DNA of 64,000 bases. Source: a virus (taxonomy: Duplodnaviria; Caudoviricetes). Each line of letters opens with the position of its first letter. The first letter of the stretch is position 1. A program made the position numbers and the translations under genes. The notes beneath the pieces are model-generated. The model was given only the letters and a program-made list of their open reading frames with translations, did not search any database and was not told the origin of the DNA. Where the stretch lies: the IMG/VR virus record IMGVR_UViG_2513237100_000001, positions 22,043 through 86,042 of that record. One strand, given 5' to 3'. Shown in pieces: positions 1-8,712 of the stretch.

Positions 1-1
1 C

Positions 2-343
2 GAGGAGTCGGAGTTGGGTGGCGTAGGCGGGGGATGAGGGGCGAAGGTCGAGGCGTCTGGCCTGCGGGTCGAAGTGGGCGGGCTCGACGCGGCCGACGTA
101 CTGGGGGCACAGCTCGGGCCACTGCTCAAGAAGGTCGCCGCCTTGGACGCCGACTTGCCAGCCGAGTTCCCCGGACACTGCGGCGAGGACACTGCCGAGG
201 CCGGCGGGCTCGCGGCGCTCCCCGCGGGCAGGCCTGCGGGTGCGCACCTTGGGGGCGGCGCTGGGCTTGGTTTTGGATGCGGCGCGGGCGGCTTGGAAGG
301 CGAGGCGGGCCAGGTCGGCACCGGACGCGGGCTGGTCGGTCAC
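2..343 (-). CDS. DciA/DUF721-family protein (helicase-loader-like), 3' end outside window
   Basis: Manual translation from GTG 343 (not in the ORF track): MTDQPASGADLARLAFQAARAA...EPAGLGSVLAAVSGELGWQVGVQGGDLLEQWPELCPQYVGRVEPAHFDPQARRLDLRPSSPAYATQLRLL. Resembles the actinobacterial DUF721 pattern; GTGA overlap with the upstream gene. Confidence 0.75.
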   Translation of the reverse strand, partial: MTDQPASGADLARLAFQAARAASKTKPSAAPKVRTRRPARGERREPAGLGSVLAAVSGELGWQVGVQGGDLLEQWPELCPQYVGRVEPAHFDPQARRLDLRPSSPAYATQLRLL

Positions 344-723
344 GGCTGCACCTCGGGCATGGCGAAGTAGTCCTCGGAGGTGACCCACACGCCGTCCGTC
401 CGCATGGCCATCTCGCCAGATGTCAGGTCGTTGGCAAGGAACCTGGCCAGCTCTCCGGGGCTCAGGGGTGGCTCGCCGTCCGCGGTGAAGGAGGCGTTGA
501 GGTGGTCGCGCATCTGGTCGTAGGTGAGCTGCCGTACCTGCCCATCGGAGCACAGCATGGGCAGGTGACCTACGGCGAGCGCCTGCTTGAGTGCCTCCAG
601 GGTGGCCGGGAAGGCAGCGATCTCCGGGGAGGTGGGGCGGGTGCTTCGTGCGGCATGAGCCTTGGCCTGTCGCTGGACCTTGGCGGCCCTGCTGCTGGTG
701 TTGCGCTTCTTCTTGCTGCTCAT
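340..723 (-). CDS. hypothetical protein
   Basis: ORF with GGAG RBS, operonic between rep and the DciA-like gene. Confidence 0.7.
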   Translation of the reverse strand: MSSKKKRNTSSRAAKVQRQAKAHAARSTRPTSPEIAAFPATLEALKQALAVGHLPMLCSDGQVRQLTYDQMRDHLNASFTADGEPPLSPGELARFLANDLTSGEMAMRTDGVWVTSEDYFAMPEVQP

Positions 724-735
724 GGTGGTCTCCGG

Positions 736-2136
736 TCAGAAGGCGTTGGCGAGAGTGGGTTCGGGGTTGAGGCGCAGCAGTACGAGGGCCTGGTTGACGA
801 GGTGGTGGGTGAGAAGCTGGCGGGCGCCCTGCTCGCCAAGCTCGGCAATGAAGCTGCGGACGAACGTCGGGTCCTGGGAGGCCAGCTTTCGCTGCTCCAG
901 GACTTCCTCCCGAGTGAGGGAGTGCAGGTCGATGACGCCTTCGGGGTGCACGGTTTCGGTCTGCTCGGCCGCCCAGTCGTTCTGCCCCGGGCAGAACGTG
1001 TCGGTGATGGCCTGGCGGGCGGCGAACGCAGTGTCGGTGTCGGCGGCGTCCTCGATGGCGGGCTGGTCGTATCCGGCGTGCCGGAACTTCTCCTGCGCCC
1101 GGGAGTCTTCCCATGCGGTGAACATCAGGTGCCGGGACCGGGGTGATGCGTACAGGCGGTGGACGCCCTTGAGGCGGTGGGCGAGGAGTCCGGAGGGGCG
1201 GCGGGTGTCGGCCGGGTTGATGGGGTTGTTCTCTTCGGCGGCGGCCTGAACTTCCTGCCATGTCCATCCGGTGTCGGCGCAGTGGCGGGCGATCCACGCG
1301 ATGCGGGGTGTGGATGCTTTCGAGAGCCACGGCACGTTGGTGATGAGTTCGTGGGCGAGCTGGTAGCGGCGGCCGACGTGGTTGAGCTTCCGGGGCCTGC
1401 TGGTGGTGTTCTTCGGGGTGGGGTGAGTGTGGCTCCCGCTGGCGAGTTTTGCCTCAGAGGGGGGGATAGAACTACCGGTGGAGGAAGACTCAGTAGAACC
1501 ACCCTCCATTAGGGTGCAACGGCTGTTCCCGGAAACGGGGGTCCTGCGGCGGGGGCGGCGGACCTTTCGGGCAGCCTTGCGGGCGAGCTTCCCGAGAGTC
1601 TTGCGGTGCTCGTCTGCGGCGCCGACAGGGCGCCGTTGCACCCCTTCGCCAGTGGTGCGGATGCCGAGGGCGTCGTCGAAGACGGTGGGGATGACCCGCT
1701 CGTACACGGAGGCTTCGTCGCGGCCCTGGGTGACGCGGCCGCCCTTGGACCGGTAGGCGAGGAGGCCGGCCTCCCGGAGCATGCTCAGGTGGTACTCGAC
1801 GGTCCGCTCGGAGCACTTGGTTTTGCGGGCGAGGTAGGCGATGCCGGGCCGGCATGTCTTGAGGTTGGCGCATTCCTGGGCGATGAGGAGGGTGGTGTGG
1901 TTCATGCGGCGCGGCCCGTGGGTGCGGGTGGGGGTGTAGAGGCCGCTGCTGTGGACCCAGTGGACGGCGGTCATCCAGGTGTGTCCGTCGAGGGCGATGC
2001 GGCCTTCGGTGGTGGTGAGCCACTGGCACGCGGGGGCGACGTAGAGGCACTGGGTGCCCTGTTCGGCGGCAGACTTTTGCCGCGAATCCGGCGTCTGGGC
2101 GTGCTCAAGCTGACAAGCGGTGTTCGGGTACGGCAC
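736..2136 (-). CDS. helix-turn-helix replication-initiator-like protein (start uncertain)
   Basis: HTH segment PGIAYLARKTKCSERTVEYHLSMLREAGLL, low-complexity linker, lies upstream of the DciA-like gene. Confidence 0.6.
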   Translation of the reverse strand: MPYPNTACQLEHAQTPDSRQKSAAEQGTQCLYVAPACQWLTTTEGRIALDGHTWMTAVHWVHSSGLYTPTRTHGPRRMNHTTLLIAQECANLKTCRPGIAYLARKTKCSERTVEYHLSMLREAGLLAYRSKGGRVTQGRDEASVYERVIPTVFDDALGIRTTGEGVQRRPVGAADEHRKTLGKLARKAARKVRRPRRRTPVSGNSRCTLMEGGSTESSSTGSSIPPSEAKLASGSHTHPTPKNTTSRPRKLNHVGRRYQLAHELITNVPWLSKASTPRIAWIARHCADTGWTWQEVQAAAEENNPINPADTRRPSGLLAHRLKGVHRLYASPRSRHLMFTAWEDSRAQEKFRHAGYDQPAIEDAADTDTAFAARQAITDTFCPGQNDWAAEQTETVHPEGVIDLHSLTREEVLEQRKLASQDPTFVRSFIAELGEQGARQLLTHHLVNQALVLLRLNPEPTLANAF

Positions 2137-2232
2137 TATGGACCTCGTTCCGGAGTACGGCCCGGGACACCAAAAGGCCCCAGGTGGGTCTTGGTTCGTG
2201 GAGAACCTGAAAGTCGCTCGACCTGCTCGGCC

Positions 2233-2359
2233 CCGGTCGCCAAACCGGATCCGTAAGTCGGGCCTTAGCTCGGTCGCCAAACCGAGCCGTAGGAAGTGGC
2301 CGCGCACGATGCGCCAACATCAGCGGCCAGCGGTAGAGGAAGTGCCCCCGCCAAGGGGC
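2233..2359 (-). promoter_or_regulatory. array of four stem-loops with CGCCAA/UUGGCG loops in the rep leader
   Basis: CGCCAA at 2238, 2275, 2312 and 2349, each closed by a different complementary stem. Confidence 0.7.
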
Positions 2360-2384
2360 CCAGGACCTCCCACTCAGAACGTCG

Positions 2385-2621
2385 CTACGTCACCTGATCT
2401 CCCTTGCTGGGTTCGGTCTGCCCCTGCGCCTGGTCGGCGCGGGAAGTCTGGGTGATCTGCCGGACCGTCTGGCACGGCCACCATTCGCCGTCCATGCCGC
2501 ATGTTGGGTAGGTGTAGGGCACGCCTTCGATGTCCTCGTCGAACGGCTGGTGCGGCATGCCCTCAGCGTCGATGTACGGGGGCTCGTTCTCGGCCTGGCC
2601 GGTCGCACGGGCAGCGCTCAT
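2385..2621 (-). CDS. hypothetical protein
   Basis: MSAARATGQAENEPPYID...; ATGA coupling with GGAGG RBS. Confidence 0.6.
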   Translation of the reverse strand: MSAARATGQAENEPPYIDAEGMPHQPFDEDIEGVPYTYPTCGMDGEWWPCQTVRQITQTSRADQAQGQTEPSKGDQVT

Positions 2622-2999
2622 CGCTCGCCCTCCGTCCCGCTGGTGCCGGGGCACTGGAAGAGGACGTCCATGCGCATGAACGTGTGCGAGGAGTGCCGCT
2701 CCGCGTACCCGCAGAGGGGCGACTTGGCTTCGGTCCCGTTGATGACGCGGGCGACACGACAAGCGGTCTCCCAGATGCCGTAGCCGGGCTCGTTGTCGCG
2801 GTACGGGGCCAGCCACGCTAGGGCGTTCGCCGTCTCGTCCAGCAAGTCCGCCACCGGATCGGCCAAGCCCTTCAGCTTGCCGTCCAGGTGCGGGGCTGCG
2901 GCGCGCAGGGTGTCGGCAGCTTGCTGGAGTTCCGCTGCGGTGGGCCAGGTGGTGCGGCGGCGCGCTTCGAGGTTGTCGCTCATCGCTCGCCCTCCGTCC
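2615..2999 (+). repeat. 23-bp direct repeat pair flanking one gene
   Basis: CGCTCATCGCTCGCCCTCCGTCC at 2615-2637 and 2977-2999. Confidence 0.9.
2618..2983 (-). CDS. hypothetical protein
   Basis: MSDNLEARRRTTWPT...TEGER; ATGA coupling at both ends. Confidence 0.7.
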   Translation of the reverse strand: MSDNLEARRRTTWPTAAELQQAADTLRAAAPHLDGKLKGLADPVADLLDETANALAWLAPYRDNEPGYGIWETACRVARVINGTEAKSPLCGYAERHSSHTFMRMDVLFQCPGTSGTEGER

Positions 3000-3438
3000 A
3001 GCCGTAGCACTCCGCGAGCGCGACGACGGTCGGGCAGGGGTGCGGGGTAGCGGTCCGGAAGGACACCGAGTTTCCCTCGCTGTCCTCTTCCGACTCCTCG
3101 GGGCGGGCGCAGGTGATGCATCCGCCCATGCCGTCCGGCTGGTGCTCCGCGATGAGCTTGCGGTCGGCGGCGCAACGGCGCAGGACCGAGGCGGGGTCAT
3201 GCAGGGCGATGTGTACCGACTGCGGCTTAGTCGGGTATCCCTCGTCGTAGACGACTGTCCTGTCGCGCTCGTCGCTGACGCCAGCTCCGCTGGTCTCGCC
3301 TTCTTCGATTTCGTCGTCCGGGCACCAACCACTGTGCCAGCGGCCGTCTCCGCCGTCGCAAGCTTCTTGGGCGACTCGCTCATGCTCGGCGATGGCAGTG
3401 TTCAGGAAGGCGAGGATGGCCTCGCCCTGGGTGGTCAT
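2980..3438 (-). CDS. DUF6221-like phage protein
   Basis: ILAFLNTAIAEHERVA...HIALHDPASVLRRCAADRKLI...PCPTVVALAECYG pattern. Confidence 0.65.
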   Translation of the reverse strand: MTTQGEAILAFLNTAIAEHERVAQEACDGGDGRWHSGWCPDDEIEEGETSGAGVSDERDRTVVYDEGYPTKPQSVHIALHDPASVLRRCAADRKLIAEHQPDGMGGCITCARPEESEEDSEGNSVSFRTATPHPCPTVVALAECYGWTEGER

Positions 3439-3827
3439 GCGCTTGTGCGGGTAGTGGTGACAGGGCCTGCGTGCGTCGGCGGTGTGATCATCTCGCCGGA
3501 AACGCTAGGCCTACTGTCTGCGGGGATGAGTCCCCGGGTACTCTTCTGCATGTCGACACCTTGACCTTGTCTTTGGGGTGTTGGCCGGCCGCCGAAGTCT
3601 GTTGGGACTGTCTGCGGCACCGGCTCCGCGTCGATCCCGGTTACCAGCCGGGGGAGCGGAGCCGTTCTATTTGCTGTTGTGCCCCAGAAACCTGAGTGGT
3701 CGTCTGGCGCATAGCACAGCCTACTCGTTGCGGACACTACTTGTCCCCCTCCAGCCGATCGTGTTGTTCATCCGACAAGTCATCACATCCAACGACACCG
3801 GCAACCTGTGCGCCGTGGACCCGTGCC

Positions 3828-3861
3828 GTCCTATAGTTTTGCGACTTTAATAACGTGATCA
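3828..3861 (+). repeat. 34-bp inverted repeat, left copy (candidate recombination site)
   Basis: GTCCTATAGTTTTGCGACTTTAATAACGTGATCA, the exact reverse complement of 15894-15927. Confidence 0.9.
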
Positions 3862-3883
3862 AGCAAGGCTGGCCCGGCACCCC

Positions 3884-4312
3884 TCAAGACGCCCTGGCCA
3901 GCAAAAAGGCGGGAAGAGACTCGCCAACCCCGGGCCCTTCCACCCGGATCGGGTGCACGTCCGCCGGGCCCTGATTGCCCGGCGGGTCCTCGGCGGCGCG
4001 ACGCCCCGCCCTGGCTGTGGTGGCCGCCCGTGTGCACTTCGGGCAGCGGCACTTCAGCATGTTGTACCGGTACTCGTCGTGCGGGATGCCCTCCTGCCGC
4101 ACCTTCGCCCCCACCTCCCGGGCCTCGACCAGGGCGGCCGCGAACTTCCGATCCGTACGGGCATGCCGGGTAGGTACGGCCCGGTTGATCCCAGCGTGCT
4201 CGGCGGCCTCCCCCAGGCGCATGCCGTGCCGGACCGCGTCAAGGAACGCCTGACGTGTCGGCTCGTCGAACACGGTCGGCCGGCCCCGGCGGGGGGTGTG
4301 GGGTTGGGTCAC
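3884..4312 (-). CDS. HTH DNA-binding protein with C-terminal Cys motif
   Basis: GRPTVFDEPTRQAFLDAVRHGMRLGEAAEHAGINR; CRCPKC. Confidence 0.6.
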   Translation of the reverse strand: MTQPHTPRRGRPTVFDEPTRQAFLDAVRHGMRLGEAAEHAGINRAVPTRHARTDRKFAAALVEAREVGAKVRQEGIPHDEYRYNMLKCRCPKCTRAATTARAGRRAAEDPPGNQGPADVHPIRVEGPGVGESLPAFLLARAS

Positions 4313-4722
4313 GGGTGCCCTCCATCCCGCACCGGGCCTCGGGTGAGGGCTTCGGTGTCGGCAGGATGCTGGGGCGGGTGAACGCGTGCCGATCTACCGG
4401 CCATGCGTCCCATCGCCACGAACCCGGCCTCGTCCAGGGCGGCACGCAGCCGGTGCAGGGCGTCCGGGGTCCAGGTGGGGCGTGCCGCGGCTTTTCCCGC
4501 CTGGTAGCCGACGGCCAACGCCGCCTCCCACACCGCCCGCACCACAACCGGGTCCGCATCAGGGAAGAGCAACTCCGGGAGCTTGCCGGGGCGGCTGGTG
4601 GCTTTGAGCATGCCGTGGGCGATCAGGCCGGCGAGGTAGTCCCCGGAGGACTGGCACCGGTCGGCGAGCACCTGGTCGGTGTCGGCGGCCGCAGACGGCT
4701 GCGGAATGGGGGTGGTGGTCAT
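4309..4722 (-). CDS. hypothetical protein
   Basis: MTTTPIPQPSAAADTDQVLADRCQ...; coupled to neighbours. Confidence 0.6.
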   Translation of the reverse strand: MTTTPIPQPSAAADTDQVLADRCQSSGDYLAGLIAHGMLKATSRPGKLPELLFPDADPVVVRAVWEAALAVGYQAGKAAARPTWTPDALHRLRAALDEAGFVAMGRMAGRSARVHPPQHPADTEALTRGPVRDGGHP

Positions 4723-5741
4723 GCGGCAGGCTCCAGAACAGTCGGGATACGGCGAGAGCGTGAAGTGCGGGAAGAGTGGGCCGGTCCCGCGACGATGGCG
4801 GGGGCGGCGGCCGTCGAGGACACGGCCAGTACAACCGAGGTGTCGCCGGTGACCGTGACAGCCAGCAGCAGTTGCTCGTACGCGGCACGAAGCCGGGCCC
4901 GGAACCCTCGGCGCGGCGGAACCGTGGCAGGAAGCACAGGCACGGGGCGGCCGGCCAGGCGGCGGGGGCCGCGCGGCATGTCCTCCATACCCGGCAGCAC
5001 CAACTGGGGGCCCACCGTGCGGGTCGGTGGGGCGATACGGCGCTGCCGCACCCCGTCCACCGTCGGGGCCGCCGCGTACGGCATCGGCCCGTCCGGGCGG
5101 ATCCGCATCGACCGGGGCAGCAGCCCGTGCTCGACCGCGGCGGCGAGCAGTTGGTCGCGGGTTGCTCGTTCCCGGTCCAAGCCGAGCATGCCGACGAGCG
5201 CGGACCGGTGCCAGTTCGCGGTCCGTAGGTCCATGCTCGCCCGGTAGGCGACCGCCTCCGGGTCGGTGTTGCGGGCCAGGGCGGCGAGGACGGCCCGCTT
5301 CTGCGGTGTGCGGGCATCGTCCAAGCTCCGCACCGTGGGCGTCGCTTCGGTGGCCGCCGTGCCCGTGCCGACCGTCGCAGCATGCCGGCGGGCGATCAGT
5401 GCCCGGTGCCTGGCGAGAGCCAACTCCCCACCCATCACGCCTTCCGGCTCGACAAGGTGCTCGACACCAGCCTCGTCCAGCGTCGTGGTGTTCGCGTACG
5501 TACGGCAGGCGGCCAGGACAGGGCACCGCTTGCAGATCGCCAGGGCGGCACGCTCCCGGGCCCGGCGAACCCGCTGCGGCTCCGCACCGTCATCCGTGTA
5601 CGGGCCCCACGCGTCGATCGGCACACCCGGGTCCGCGGCCGACACCCGCGGGTCGTCCGGGTCGCCGGCGCAGCCCCGGTACTTGTAGTGCCGGTCATCG
5701 ACCAGGTGTTGCCGGGCGGTGATCGCGTCCATGGTGGTCAT
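4719..5741 (-). CDS. WhiB-like (Wbl) Fe-S transcription factor with C-terminal extension
   Basis: YRGCA...AALAICKRCPVLAACRTYA...EPEGVMGG (WhiB Cys pattern plus a GVWGG-like turn). Confidence 0.75.
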   Translation of the reverse strand: MTTMDAITARQHLVDDRHYKYRGCAGDPDDPRVSAADPGVPIDAWGPYTDDGAEPQRVRRARERAALAICKRCPVLAACRTYANTTTLDEAGVEHLVEPEGVMGGELALARHRALIARRHAATVGTGTAATEATPTVRSLDDARTPQKRAVLAALARNTDPEAVAYRASMDLRTANWHRSALVGMLGLDRERATRDQLLAAAVEHGLLPRSMRIRPDGPMPYAAAPTVDGVRQRRIAPPTRTVGPQLVLPGMEDMPRGPRRLAGRPVPVLPATVPPRRGFRARLRAAYEQLLLAVTVTGDTSVVLAVSSTAAAPAIVAGPAHSSRTSRSRRIPTVLEPAA

Positions 5742-6034
5742 GCGGGGTCCCCCTCGTGCGGGTGGTGCGGGTAGTGCGGTGTGCGGGCCAGTTCCGCGGT
5801 GACAATCCGGTCGGCCTCCGCGAGTACCTGGCCTTCGAGCTCGGCCGCCCGGTGCTCGGCAACCAGACCAGCAATCCGGGCTTGGAACGCGTCCATGTCC
5901 CGGTGGTCCGCGGCCCGCGTCAGGCGGACCGCGGCACGCTCCATACGGATCAGGTGCCGCAACTGGCGGACCCTCCACCAAGCGGCGGCCGCCAGGGTCA
6001 GGGCGCACGTGGCGCCCAGCAGAATCAGGTACAT
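5738..6034 (-). CDS. small membrane-anchored protein
   Basis: MYLILLGATCALTLAAAAWW; GGAGG RBS. Confidence 0.6.
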   Translation of the reverse strand: MYLILLGATCALTLAAAAWWRVRQLRHLIRMERAAVRLTRAADHRDMDAFQARIAGLVAEHRAAELEGQVLAEADRIVTAELARTPHYPHHPHEGDPA

Positions 6035-6078
6035 CGGTGTCGCCTCCTCCATGTCGGGGCGCCGAAACGGGCGTGTGG

Positions 6079-6225
6079 TCACCGGCGGGGGTGCCGGTCG
6101 GGCCGGTAGCGGGCGTACTCCTCGGGCAGCGGCGGCATACGGCCCGCCGCGTGCCGCCACCACGCCACCGCGAACGGGGCGGCCAGCAGCAGGAACACGA
6201 CGACCAGAACTACGGCGACGGCCAC
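6079..6225 (-). CDS. small membrane protein
   Basis: AAGGAGG RBS then VAVAVVLVVVFLLLAAPFAVAWW. Confidence 0.55.
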   Translation of the reverse strand: MAVAVVLVVVFLLLAAPFAVAWWRHAAGRMPPLPEEYARYRPDRHPRR

Positions 6226-6304
6226 CAGGGCCTCCTTCGCGGTGCGGGGAACAGAACGGCCGGCCCCGGGACGGGACCGGCCGGTGGTGCAGCGGGTGTG
6301 CGAG

Positions 6305-6898
6305 TCAGGCGATGTGTGTCCAGCCGTGCCCGTTGACAATGCGAGAGACGGTTGGGCGACTTATGCCGTACTCAGCGGCCAGCACTCGCTGGAGCTCGCC
6401 AGCCGCGGCGCGGGCCCGGATCTGCAACACCTGAGCGACCGTGAGGCGAGCCTGCCCGTTAACTTCCCCGGTGTTCCCTCGCCCCTTGGCGTCCCGGTCG
6501 GCGGCGTTGTCTGCCTTGGTCCCCAGAAACAGATGGGACGGGTTCACGCATGGCGGGTTGTCGCAGCGGTGCAGCACGCAAAGCCCCTCCGGGGCCCGGC
6601 CGTCGAGAAGGACAGAGACCCGGTGCGCTTTGATCGTTGGGCCGGTCCGCTGACCCTCGGGGCGCATCACGCCGTACCCGTGCTCGTTCAGGGCTGCGGT
6701 CCACTCCCAGCACTCGTCAGGGCTCCGCTTGTCGACCTTCGCCCAGAAGCGATCGGCCAGGGTCTGTTTGGCGGGGGCGTCCGTAGTGCCGGTGCGCTTG
6801 AGCCTGCCCAGGTGCATTTCGCATAGCCCGCGCCCCTTATGGGGGCGGGAGCAGCCGTCAAGGCTACACAGGCGGGGCGTGTTGTACTTCGCTGGCAT
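6305..6898 (-). CDS. HNH endonuclease (HNH_3, homing-type)
   Basis: RFWAKVDK...CWEW...GYG...AHRVS...VLHRCDNPPCVNPSHLFLGTKADN. Confidence 0.9.
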   Translation of the reverse strand: MPAKYNTPRLCSLDGCSRPHKGRGLCEMHLGRLKRTGTTDAPAKQTLADRFWAKVDKRSPDECWEWTAALNEHGYGVMRPEGQRTGPTIKAHRVSVLLDGRAPEGLCVLHRCDNPPCVNPSHLFLGTKADNAADRDAKGRGNTGEVNGQARLTVAQVLQIRARAAAGELQRVLAAEYGISRPTVSRIVNGHGWTHIA

Positions 6899-7782
6899 CA
6901 GGCAGCGCCCCTCTCGGTGTTGTGGCCGTTCGCGGTGGCCTGGTTCAGGAAGGTGATCTGCTCGTTCAGCAGGGTGCGCAGCGTCTGGCGGCCGTTCGGA
7001 CCGTCGACTTCCTCGTCGGCGACCTTGTGCTTCTCGGCGTCCGCGAGGACCTGGGAGAGGGCGATGGCGTTGGCCCAGCAGGTCTTCGCCTGGCCGACGA
7101 GCCGGCCAACGTGGCTGCCAGGCCCAGTGTCGGGCTTCGAAGGCTTCTGCCGTGCTGGTGCGGTCGTGGGCGCATCCTCGGTGTCCAGAGACGCACCCCC
7201 GGACTCCACGATCTCCAGGTCCGACGACGTCCACAGGTCCAGAGCCATCCCGAAGCGCATCCCCGCGTTCCGGATCGCGTCGCCGATGACCTCCTTCACC
7301 GCGTCGCCACCCGTCTTGTCGCCGGCGTGCCCGTACCCCAGCCGGGACATGCCGCACACTGTCAGGCGGATCCACAGACCGCGGTACCCGTCGACCTGCG
7401 GCAGCCCCCGCTCGTCGACCGTCAGGGGCTCCCAGTCCCAGAACGGGTCCACGTTCAGGAGGCGGTTCGTCGCTTCGGCGTGGCCGACGAACTTGAGGTC
7501 GATGTGCCCGTTCCTCGGCATGCGCTGCTTGCACTTGTCGCACGGGCCGTAGGTGTGCTGGTTGCAGCCCTTACCGCGAGAGTCCTTGCATGCCCTGCAC
7601 CACACGCGCGGCAGGTACCGGACTTCGGCGGGGAGGAACGGCTCACGGAGCTTGTGGAGAGCTTCGATCTGCTCGGCCCGGGTGTACCCGAAGGTGTTCG
7701 ACGGGCGGGTGTCGGCCTGGTTTTGGGTGTGCGTGGTGGGGCCCTCCGCCATGGTGGCGGGGGCCTCAGTGGTGGTAGCCAC
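6898..7782 (-). CDS. Rad52/Rad22 (Sak)-like single-strand annealing protein
   Basis: LREPF...FVGHAEATNRLLNVDP.WDWEP...LWIRLTVCGMSRLGYG...KEVIGDAIRNAGMRFGMALDLW, with a CxxC...CxxC insert. Confidence 0.8.
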   Translation of the reverse strand: MATTTEAPATMAEGPTTHTQNQADTRPSNTFGYTRAEQIEALHKLREPFLPAEVRYLPRVWCRACKDSRGKGCNQHTYGPCDKCKQRMPRNGHIDLKFVGHAEATNRLLNVDPFWDWEPLTVDERGLPQVDGYRGLWIRLTVCGMSRLGYGHAGDKTGGDAVKEVIGDAIRNAGMRFGMALDLWTSSDLEIVESGGASLDTEDAPTTAPARQKPSKPDTGPGSHVGRLVGQAKTCWANAIALSQVLADAEKHKVADEEVDGPNGRQTLRTLLNEQITFLNQATANGHNTERGAA

Positions 7783-7869
7783 GAGGTCTCTTTCCTCTAT
7801 GCGGTGGAAACGCTGTGCTGCGGGTGTGGGCCCTGTGTCGGCATTGCAGACCCCACACCCGCCGGGTGC

Positions 7870-8712
7870 CTACTCGGCGGTGCTCGGGTCGATGCCGTAC
7901 TCGGCCAGCAGGTACGCCAACCCGATCTGCATCGGCGTCAGCCCCTCCGCCTTGGCCTTGACCTCGTCGAACAGGTCATTGTTCGGGTTGACCTTCATCG
8001 GGACCATGTCCGCGTCCGCCGACCACACCGGGGCGGTCGCGGTGAACTCGCCGACGAGGAACCGGTCGAAGCCCGCCTCGATCTCCGTGGTCACGTTCTT
8101 CCCAGCGTCCGCGACCCGGGACCGGATCAGATCCCGGACGGGGCGCGGCACCTGTGGGGCGCGGGTCGCACCACTCGGCCGGACGGTGGTGTCCGCACCC
8201 GGGGCGTACGGGCCGGTCTCGTACGTGCGCATCAGCCAGTCCGCCGCCACGTGCATCGGCTTCACGCCGGTGTCCGCGACCCGCTGACGCAAGGCATCGT
8301 CGGGGCGGACGTTCAGATTTACCTTCTCCTCGCTGGTGCCGCGGCGGGCCCGCACCGGCGGGTTGGGGGTGAACGCCCCGGCGAGGTAGGCGGTGAACCC
8401 GTTGTTCACGTCGGCGGTCACCGTCCGGCCGGCCTGTTCGGCACCGGCGACGATGCGGTCCCGTGCGGTGACGGGGATGCGGATTGACAGGTTCTCGTCG
8501 ACGTTCAGGGCGTCACGCAGCTCGTACGTGGACAGGGTGAGGACCGTGTCGACGTGCTCGGCGAGGTCGGGTGAGTTGACTTCGCGGAGTCGGGCGGAGG
8601 CGGCGGTGAGTCCGGCACGCAGGTTGCGGCGGGTGGGCACGGGGCGGGGTCCTCTCGGGGGACGCCCGCTTGTGCGGTTGTTGGGCGGGCGCTTGTTGGG
8701 GGCGTTGGCCAC
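7870..8712 (-). CDS. putative regulator with internally duplicated ribbon-helix-helix-like units
   Basis: Two similar halves (LSIRIPVTARDRI...GFTAYLAGAF...VNLNVRPDDAL / APQVPRPVRDLI...GFDRFLVGEF...VPMKVNPNNDL); first gene of the leftward arm. Confidence 0.55.
   Translation of the reverse strand: MANAPNKRPPNNRTSGRPPRGPRPVPTRRNLRAGLTAASARLREVNSPDLAEHVDTVLTLSTYELRDALNVDENLSIRIPVTARDRIVAGAEQAGRTVTADVNNGFTAYLAGAFTPNPPVRARRGTSEEKVNLNVRPDDALRQRVADTGVKPMHVAADWLMRTYETGPYAPGADTTVRPSGATRAPQVPRPVRDLIRSRVADAGKNVTTEIEAGFDRFLVGEFTATAPVWSADADMVPMKVNPNNDLFDEVKAKAEGLTPMQIGLAYLLAEYGIDPSTAE

Follow-up and report, generated by a model that had tools for sequence, protein, structure and literature searches.

Antisense control of rep genes is textbook biology. 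R1 CopA/CopT and pIP501 RNAIII use one or two loops in RNAs of ~90-140 nt, ColE1 RNA I and RNA II meet through three kissing loops, and the IncI-alpha, IncB and IncK systems use one recognition loop together with a leader peptide and a pseudoknot, which involves a second UUGGCG/CGCCAA copy by the rep ribosome-binding site. Here we analyse an array of four hairpins that share the loop CGCCAA and lie upstream of a replication initiator gene, rep, at positions 2233-2359 of a 64-kb stretch of DNA (bases 22043-86042 of an 86-kb IMG/VR virus record; the whole stretch is called the window below). Its sequence matches identify the window as part of an 86-kb Streptomyces phage-plasmid of the pZL12 type, and the role that we favour for the array is antisense control of rep.

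Kissing in R1 CopA/CopT and pIP501 RNAIII, both countertranscripts to a rep leader, uses a U-turn loop; pIP501 RNAIII needs two loop pairs at once; and mutations of recognition loops, those of ColE1 included, create new incompatibility groups (PMC4485353). The passages of that article that were consulted describe no fourfold identical loops for R1 CopA/CopT or pIP501 RNAIII. An earlier note on this DNA, made from its sequence alone, had named UUGGCG/CGCCAA as the kissing-loop pair of R1 and IncI copy control; for ColIb-P9 (IncI-alpha), a title in the reference list of PMC10724649 agrees, giving 5'-rUUGGCG-3' as the loop motif of the antisense Inc RNA.

The locus described here shares something with each of these systems. 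As in ColE1, a multi-stem-loop antisense RNA would meet its target by several simultaneous loop-loop kisses; in ColE1, however, the three loops differ in sequence, there is no Rep protein and the target is the replication primer, whereas here four loops of one sequence would sit on an RNA of ~300 nt whose target is the rep leader. With the ColIb-P9 Inc RNA and repZ leader the array shares UUGGCG/CGCCAA as the (here putative) recognition loop and the placement of the control region in a rep leader. Unlike the IncI-alpha systems, it has four loops, an actinomycete host and no sequence relationship to them, and we attribute the common hexamer to convergence on an effective kissing loop and not to kinship. 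Neither CGCCAA nor TTGGCG, a second copy of which near the rep start would suit an IncI/IncB-type pseudoknot, occurs between 2100 and 2232, and indels in relatives break any small frame for a leader peptide of that type. The likeness to R1 CopA/CopT and pIP501 RNAIII would be that of a countertranscript to a rep leader.

Two other kinds of repeated element invite comparison. CsrB/RsmZ-type sponge RNAs are chromosomal and carry many hairpins with one short loop motif, GGA, that binds CsrA/RsmA; the array likewise displays one short motif on many hairpins, but here the motif can flip to its complement, and we know of no CsrA/RsmA-like partner protein for it. The iterons of theta plasmids, such as Streptomyces pFP1, pFP11 and pWTY27, are also repeats that adjoin rep and are able to determine incompatibility (PMC3583192). 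Iterons, however, are repeated duplex sequence that is bound by, and evolves with, its own Rep, whereas in the array the 6-nt loop alone repeats and the stems covary. Indeed, Tandem Repeats Finder gave no directly repeated duplex of ~17-22 bp (6 nt are common to the units), and array and Rep identities gave no sign of co-evolution with the cognate Rep.

Four hairpins with one loop upstream of rep

The motif CGCCAA occurs on the plus strand at 2238-2243, 2275-2280, 2312-2317 and 2349-2354, with start-to-start distances of 37, 37 and 37 nt, and each copy forms the loop of a perfect hairpin on a stem different from the other three. Both the sequence and a pattern search agree with the earlier note on these loops and stems. 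The cores are CCGGT-CGCCAA-ACCGG (2233-2248), GCTCGGT-CGCCAA-ACCGAGC (2268-2287), GATG-CGCCAA-CATC (2308-2321) and GCCCC-CGCCAA-GGGGC (2344-2359), and they are the tips of longer helices, P1 to P4, that span 2216-2373 of the plus strand. P1 (2216-2263) adds an outer helix GCTCGAC/GTCGGGC and a middle helix CGG/CCG; P2 (2264-2293) an extension CTTA/TAGG; P3 (2297-2329) an outer helix GGCCGC/GCGGCC, with which its hairpin spans 2298-2328; and P4 (2330-2373) the outer helices GCGG..GAGG / CCTC.CCAC, in which pair 2331/2372 of the window is a C-A mismatch.

By our own arithmetic, the chance that three further copies follow a given copy at one exact spacing is ~1e-9. The 64-kb window holds 58 copies of CGCCAA on both strands against 41.7 +/- 5.6 expected, and the matches between 42 and 58 kb all lie on the minus strand; this strong strand bias and the mild excess probably reflect coding-strand composition. 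The units of the array are not duplicated sequence: a 14-nt core is common to hairpins 1 and 2 only, just 6 nt repeat across all four, and Tandem Repeats Finder, run on the array, reported no repeats. A fuzzy second 'copy' at 15.2-15.6 kb was rejected as a chance match devoid of hairpins.

The gene downstream of the array, rep (736-2136, minus strand; open reading frame call and translation), encodes a 466-residue replication initiator with a winged helix-turn-helix. Its winged-helix part matches 'replication initiation protein / O-like' in PHROGs (E 7e-7 to 3e-3), and a comparison with Pfam gave weak helix-turn-helix matches only, below cut-off. We place the probable start at the GTG complementary to 2134-2136, preceded by the Shine-Dalgarno sequence GAGG (complement of 2143-2146); relatives keep the frame from that GTG/TTG open in 33 of 33 cases, and PGAP chose the same start in several plasmids. 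A 3-nt periodicity of variation, looked for in the first 50 codons, was not found, which is uninformative for the start. The array lies 93-240 nt upstream of this start, and the earlier note's placement of it in a rep leader is upheld both by the PHROGs match and by the open frame.

The replication region of the window matched 115 Streptomyces plasmid records in PLSDB and Streptomyces phage ZL12 (which is plasmid pZL12), and 57 PLSDB records matched the rep leader region. In pZL12 the counterpart of rep is pZL12.20c, adjoining parA and parB; pZL12 and pSLE1 are described as 85-92-kb 'plasmid-phages' (PMC4487206). The array, joined to rep, is also found in plasmids of 102-892 kb, some of them typed conjugative or mobilizable, that are not 85-92-kb phage-plasmids.

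We collected the homologous region from 30 plasmids, phage ZL12 and 8 IMG/VR contigs, and built a covariance model (labelled R1) from 11 close relatives and a hand-drawn structure. The model found exactly one array in each of the 30 sources searched first (E 2e-46 to 4e-4), as well as in all four further plasmids and in five of eight further IMG/VR loci, giving 39 elements. Three of ten matches from a scan of IMG/VR with a 16-nt motif (L037, L038 and L040) proved unrelated chance matches, a Rep-based search of genome contigs gave 131 pattern matches, none confirmed, and a search of genome contigs with a 19-nt motif gave none.

The 30-row alignment of these elements has 1317 pair cells, of which 98.2% hold a standard pair, and at 17 of its 49 pairs both sides have changed in a compensatory way. 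Column shuffling, repeated 500 times, never reached the observed value on any of five measures, and sliding the partners by 1-3 columns lowered pairing to 35-50%. The stem of hairpin 3 illustrates the pattern in the raw sequences, where the same loop is carried by gatg/catc, cgatg/catcg, ggtg/cacc, ggtgt/acacc, tggtg/cacca or cggtg/caccg; in helix 4 of P2, 5 of 11 pairs are changed on both sides, and pair 89/119 is U-A in 16 sequences and U-G in 13. Stems that covary around loops that are held indicate a structure under selection, as the earlier note had read them, and at the level of sequence comparison we regard selection on pairing as established. The exact 37-nt period, on the other hand, is real in the window and is not a conserved feature. 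Relatives space their loops by 36-39 nt or have fewer motif loops, and 37/37/37 occurs in 6 of the 30 elements scanned; the period is therefore incidental.

Across the 39 elements the loop sequence is constant within an array and switches between arrays. CGCCAA fills all four loops in 14 elements, the window included, and three or two loops in nine, which otherwise carry near variants (CGCCAG, GGCCAA, TGCCAA, CAGCCA, CTGCTA) or a non-motif hairpin. CGTCAA fills all four loops in L009, L013, L021 and L032 and three in L014 (3+1), and the loops of L020 are mixed. Seven arrays (pZL12, L005, L027, L035, L036, L041 and L042) have TTGGCG on the plus strand in P1 and P3, and five of these also in P2, the distal P4 being absent; the last three (L017, L025 and L026) have TTGGCA, CTGGCA, GTGGCA or CGGCAA loops (YGGCA type). 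The loop core G-N-C-A is kept even where the loop register has shifted (CAGCCA, CTGCTA, CTGGCA). Finding the identical C-to-T change in all four loops at 13-17% array divergence has, by our own arithmetic, a chance of the order of 1e-6; this joint change cannot be drift. Two arrays have P1 swapped for a short motif-less hairpin, GCCCT-TTCG-AGGGC in L039 (11038-11181) and GCTCCGG-GATT-CCGGAGC in L024 (856-1000), and retain CGCCAA in P2-P4, so that three motif loops suffice in nature.

Where one strain holds two members of the family, their loop types differ, in five of five strains: NBC_00842, NBC_00873, NBC_01240 and NBC_01369 combine a CGTCAA with a CGCCAA array, and NBC_01238 combines a YGGCA-type with a CGCCAA array. 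This pattern is consistent with the loops acting as a specificity determinant.

The loops do not follow the initiator. Beyond about residue 35 the Rep proteins are of two unrelated classes, and loop type cuts across both. L003 and L007 have 99% array identity at 25% identity of Rep residues 36-190, L003 and pZL12 have 60% at 90%, L027 and pZL12 have 97% at 25%, and L027 and L021 have 57% at 84%. The first 25-35 codons of rep (V-P-Y-x-x-x-x-C-Q-L ... D-S-R-Q-K-S ... G-T-Q-C; 2040-2136 of the window, minus strand) are common to both classes among L001-L033 and do not sort by loop type. Since array and Rep identities are uncoupled, the array and the first rep codons are, as far as sequence comparison goes, a cassette that recombines independently of the body of the initiator. 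This argues against Rep as the reader of the loops, and, being the opposite of iteron behaviour, makes it unlikely that the array itself is the replication origin. In NZ_CP108874.1 (L023, an 892-kb linear plasmid) the array is present twice, at ~78,235-78,585 and 813,837-814,007, on opposite strands and at a similar distance from each end; the two copies presumably lie within terminal inverted repeats.

The strand and extent of the predicted RNA

The modelled helices contain 105 G-U against 13 A-C cells, so that 98.2% of cells pair on the plus strand and 91.2% on the minus strand. The outer helices carry the asymmetry (89 G-U against 9 A-C; 97.4% of cells paired on the plus strand against 87.2% on the minus strand), and several positions hold U-A in some elements and U-G in others, or likewise G-C and G-U, which preserves pairing on the plus strand only. 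The four core hairpins, with 516 Watson-Crick, 16 G-U and 4 A-C cells, are nearly all Watson-Crick and can thus form on both strands, as a kissing pair needs. A UUCG tetraloop is read on the plus strand also where a hairpin replaces P1 in L039, and TTGGCG-type arrays have a hairpin with a GCAA tetraloop on that strand. Together, the G-U asymmetry and the tetraloops favour a folded RNA read from the plus strand, the strand that the earlier note had suggested for a small RNA; the RNA itself is a prediction.

Conservation begins at ~2066-2072, within the first 25-35 rep codons, and stops past the last hairpin, and many plasmid matches are limited to that span (106-113 to 452-461 of the leader query). 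Among relatives the length of the array varies between 144 and 176 nt in steps that are not multiples of 3, which points to a non-coding region with no small frame conserved. A 111-residue plus-strand open reading frame at 2120-2455 was rejected as coding, being broken by indels in relatives.

At the rep-proximal end, the plus strand carries a promoter-like element at 2110-2139, with CTGACA at 2110-2115, an 18-nt spacer and CACTAT at 2134-2139, for which a transcription start at ~2145-2148 is expected. It overlaps the rep start codon. In the 30-element alignment, AGCTGACA is invariant, as are four letters of CACTAT (C, A, A and T), among them the position-2 A and position-6 T, the two most critical in a -10 box; the spacer varies in sequence and never in length (18 nt). 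The element scores 8 of 12 against the Escherichia coli consensus and, given its conservation, may be the promoter of a plus-strand transcript.

Three hairpins are predicted 5' of the array (2147-2207, plus strand; minimum free energy fold and alignment): one at 2147-2168, followed by an A-rich linker, one at 2174-2192, and GGTTC-N5-GAACC at 2193-2207. The second is of the C(UUCG)G tetraloop type in many relatives, reading CCCGC-TTCG-GTGGG on the plus strand in 11 of 30. On the minus strand, 3-5 consecutive U come after the 2174-2192 hairpin, ~40-50 nt ahead of the rep ribosome-binding site, and in relatives this U run is the complement of the A-run preceding the UUCG hairpin; hairpin and U run look like a weak attenuator in the rep leader.

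On the 3' side (2396-2449, plus strand) two further hairpins lie within 2396-2443, P5 at 2396-2418 and the terminator-like P6, CCTGCGCC-TGGTC-GGCGCGGG, at 2423-2443, with the tail AAGTCT. A plus-strand terminator was called at the P6 position in L013 and L007, not in the window or L006, and an ungapped scan found a hairpin there in 24 of 30 elements. Pairing between the P4 and P5 loops was considered and rejected, since relatives do not keep it. This 3' part overlaps the 3' end of a minus-strand open reading frame at 2390-2608.

All genes neighbouring the array lie on the minus strand. Those upstream of the cassette (2390-3438 in the window, and relatives) vary by plasmid and encode small hypothetical proteins and DUF6221 proteins, the window having a DUF6221 gene at 2983-3438; pZL12 and L012 have a DNA adenine methylase gene upstream of the cassette. 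Within the 5' part of rep, the perfect palindrome GGCAC-TGG-GTGCC (2046-2058), kept in most relatives, could be an operator or a small hairpin.

How the array may act

The earlier note had left the choice open between an antisense RNA, an attenuator, a protein-binding array and an immunity function. We lean towards the first: an antisense RNA of ~300 nt, directed at the rep leader and with the array at its core, would control copy number and incompatibility through four kissing loops. In this scheme a plus-strand RNA from ~2146 to ~2445 would be transcribed divergently from rep, its promoter overlapping the rep start codon, and would be exactly complementary to the untranslated leader necessarily present in any rep mRNA. 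The core hairpins would form in both RNAs, and their loop-to-loop meeting, CGCCAA with UUGGCG, would provide four equivalent kissing contacts. The duplex could then zip to the rep ribosome-binding site, which the 5' end of the RNA would abut, so as to lower Rep synthesis and with it copy number. Since the loops would be where recognition begins, their hexamer would decide which related plasmids inhibit one another, and thereby incompatibility. That the array is transcribed on either strand, the promoter and the terminator, the kissing and the effect on Rep are all things that we infer.

The behaviour of the loops would fit this scheme. We propose that all four change jointly because any shared loop keeps cross-talk alive. 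The U-turn motif YUNR is found as UUGG (CGCCAA types) and UUGA (CGTCAA types) on the minus strand and as UUGG on the plus strand of the seven TTGGCG-type arrays, so that the loop can flip while the frame stays, although a random 6-nt loop carries YUNR with ~30% chance by our own arithmetic.

Several points weigh against antisense control. A plain cis-antisense pair needs no four identical loops, which the scheme explains loosely (more ways to meet, a U-turn constraint); the CGGCAA loops of L025 and L026 have YUNR on neither strand; and CGUCAA against UUGGCG still permits a G-U pair, so that the two commonest types would be told apart in one direction only. Co-residence was counted in few strains: at the type frequencies seen here, random pairing would give five different pairs out of five ~6% of the time by our own arithmetic, and some of the strains were sampled at the same sites and have a plasmid in common. 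A consensus promoter scan (9-of-12 rule) called none on either strand in any of four loci (the window, L006, L007 and L013), a minus-strand rep promoter was not found upstream of the array, so that a rep mRNA including the array is itself a deduction, and a T-rich tail follows the hairpin at the P6 position in 3 of 30 elements only, most having no U-tract. The 30-row alignment was fitted to the plus-strand model, which favours structure, and folding of the single sequence of the region is not significantly better than that of shuffles (z = -1.38 on the plus strand and -0.44 on the minus strand), so the case for structure rests on the comparison with relatives. A weak hint of transcription comes from short contigs of relatives (151-295 nt) in four RNA-type public runs of three studies, which cover ~2202-2432 only within the 1.2 kb compared, but these runs were found via this most conserved stretch, the contigs are strandless and three of the four libraries are guessed to be RNA.

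Another reading, possible though hardly probable, is that the four loops of the plus-strand RNA are read by a common partner in trans other than the rep leader, either a plasmid or host RNA-binding protein or a short complementary RNA site, giving the array the role of a multivalent platform or sponge (an 'RNA iteron' array). Four identical loops on different stems, together with the joint C-to-T change in L009, L013, L021 and L032, are what a single reader would impose, and the retention of the core G-N-C-A despite shifts of register would suit it as well. However, we found no candidate for such a reader. Rep is ruled out as a co-varying one, and the only coding sequence that the cassette brings along is that of the first 25-35 rep codons, which do not sort by loop type. 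Mixed arrays occur (L014, 3+1; L020), and a same-strand flip to UUGGCG, as in seven elements, would abolish a protein site and is natural for RNA-RNA pairing. A TTGGCG within the gene, at 1865-1870, was considered as a trans target and rejected: it encodes Ala-Asn-Leu and is unchanged in CGTCAA-type plasmids.

We are doubtful of a bolder version, in which the loops would be the addresses of one dedicated partner, as an RNA counterpart of DNA iterons, and titration on a multivalent RNA would be the means of sensing copy number. If so, altering one and the same letter in each of the four loops would yield a new orthogonal replicon 'address'. As a corollary, the plus-strand RNA of a TTGGCG-type array would be complementary, loop for loop, to that of a CGCCAA-type array, and the regulators of the two plasmid types could bind and neutralise one another in a direct RNA-RNA dialogue between different plasmids of a single cell.

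It seems similarly doubtful that the minus strand alone is transcribed and that the array is a structured 5' leader of rep mRNA (an attenuator, translational operator or processing site) with no antisense RNA. The near-pure Watson-Crick core hairpins would fold equally well on that strand, the 2174-2192 hairpin, with its short run of U 40-50 nt from the rep ribosome-binding site, is attenuator-like, and no consensus plus-strand promoter was called. The asymmetry of the outer helices, with 97.4% against 87.2% pairing and 105 G-U against 13 A-C overall, nevertheless speaks for the plus strand, and the UUCG and GCAA tetraloops and the invariant -35/-10-like hexamers all face the plus direction.

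A role for the array as DNA, as a part of the origin (Rep-bound iterons or cruciforms) or as single-strand priming hairpins, is unlikely. It is suggested by the position beside rep, a place that in Streptomyces theta plasmids is occupied by 'iterons' made up of direct and inverted repeats and where, for pWTY27, a fold-back structure bound by RepA has been proposed (PMC3583192), and differing repeats in co-resident plasmids would fit iteron incompatibility too. Just 6 nt are repeated, however, between flanks that differ, which is not usual for an iteron; near-identical arrays serve two unrelated Rep classes and related Reps stand beside different arrays; and neither long-range helices containing G-U pairs nor tetraloops of RNA type would be expected of duplex DNA sites.

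That the array is an immunity RNA, a counterpart in this phage-plasmid of the small RNAs that confer immunity in P1/P7 or P4, and acts on lytic genes rather than rep, is highly improbable, for although the window and pZL12 are phage-plasmids and double carriers with different loop types would fit heteroimmunity, the cassette is joined to rep in plasmids of 102-892 kb, some conjugative or mobilizable, for which replicon control is the better fit, and no separate target with a complementary hexamer was found nearby.

A replicon control module common to Streptomyces plasmids

The array is a candidate new RNA family absent from Rfam: a cmscan of 1-8000 of the window with E up to 10 gave four weak matches, all far below gathering scores and none within 2100-2450. 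We found no literature description of four identical tandem recognition loops or of antisense control in these Streptomyces replicons, the pZL12 replicon-mapping study, which may note the region as repeats, having been outside the search; nor did the literature examined describe how pZL12-type replicons control copy number and avoid incompatibility.

Large pZL12-type Streptomyces plasmids and phage-plasmids are common. If antisense control is what the array provides, an RNA-level module would be common to two unrelated Rep classes and to replicons of 85 kb to 892 kb, and a few loop 'dialects' would give a simple rule for the coexistence of these elements. Such a module would also supply orthogonal control parts for Streptomyces vectors and, as a naturally occurring case, would allow a test of whether antisense recognition becomes faster when kissing is multivalent.

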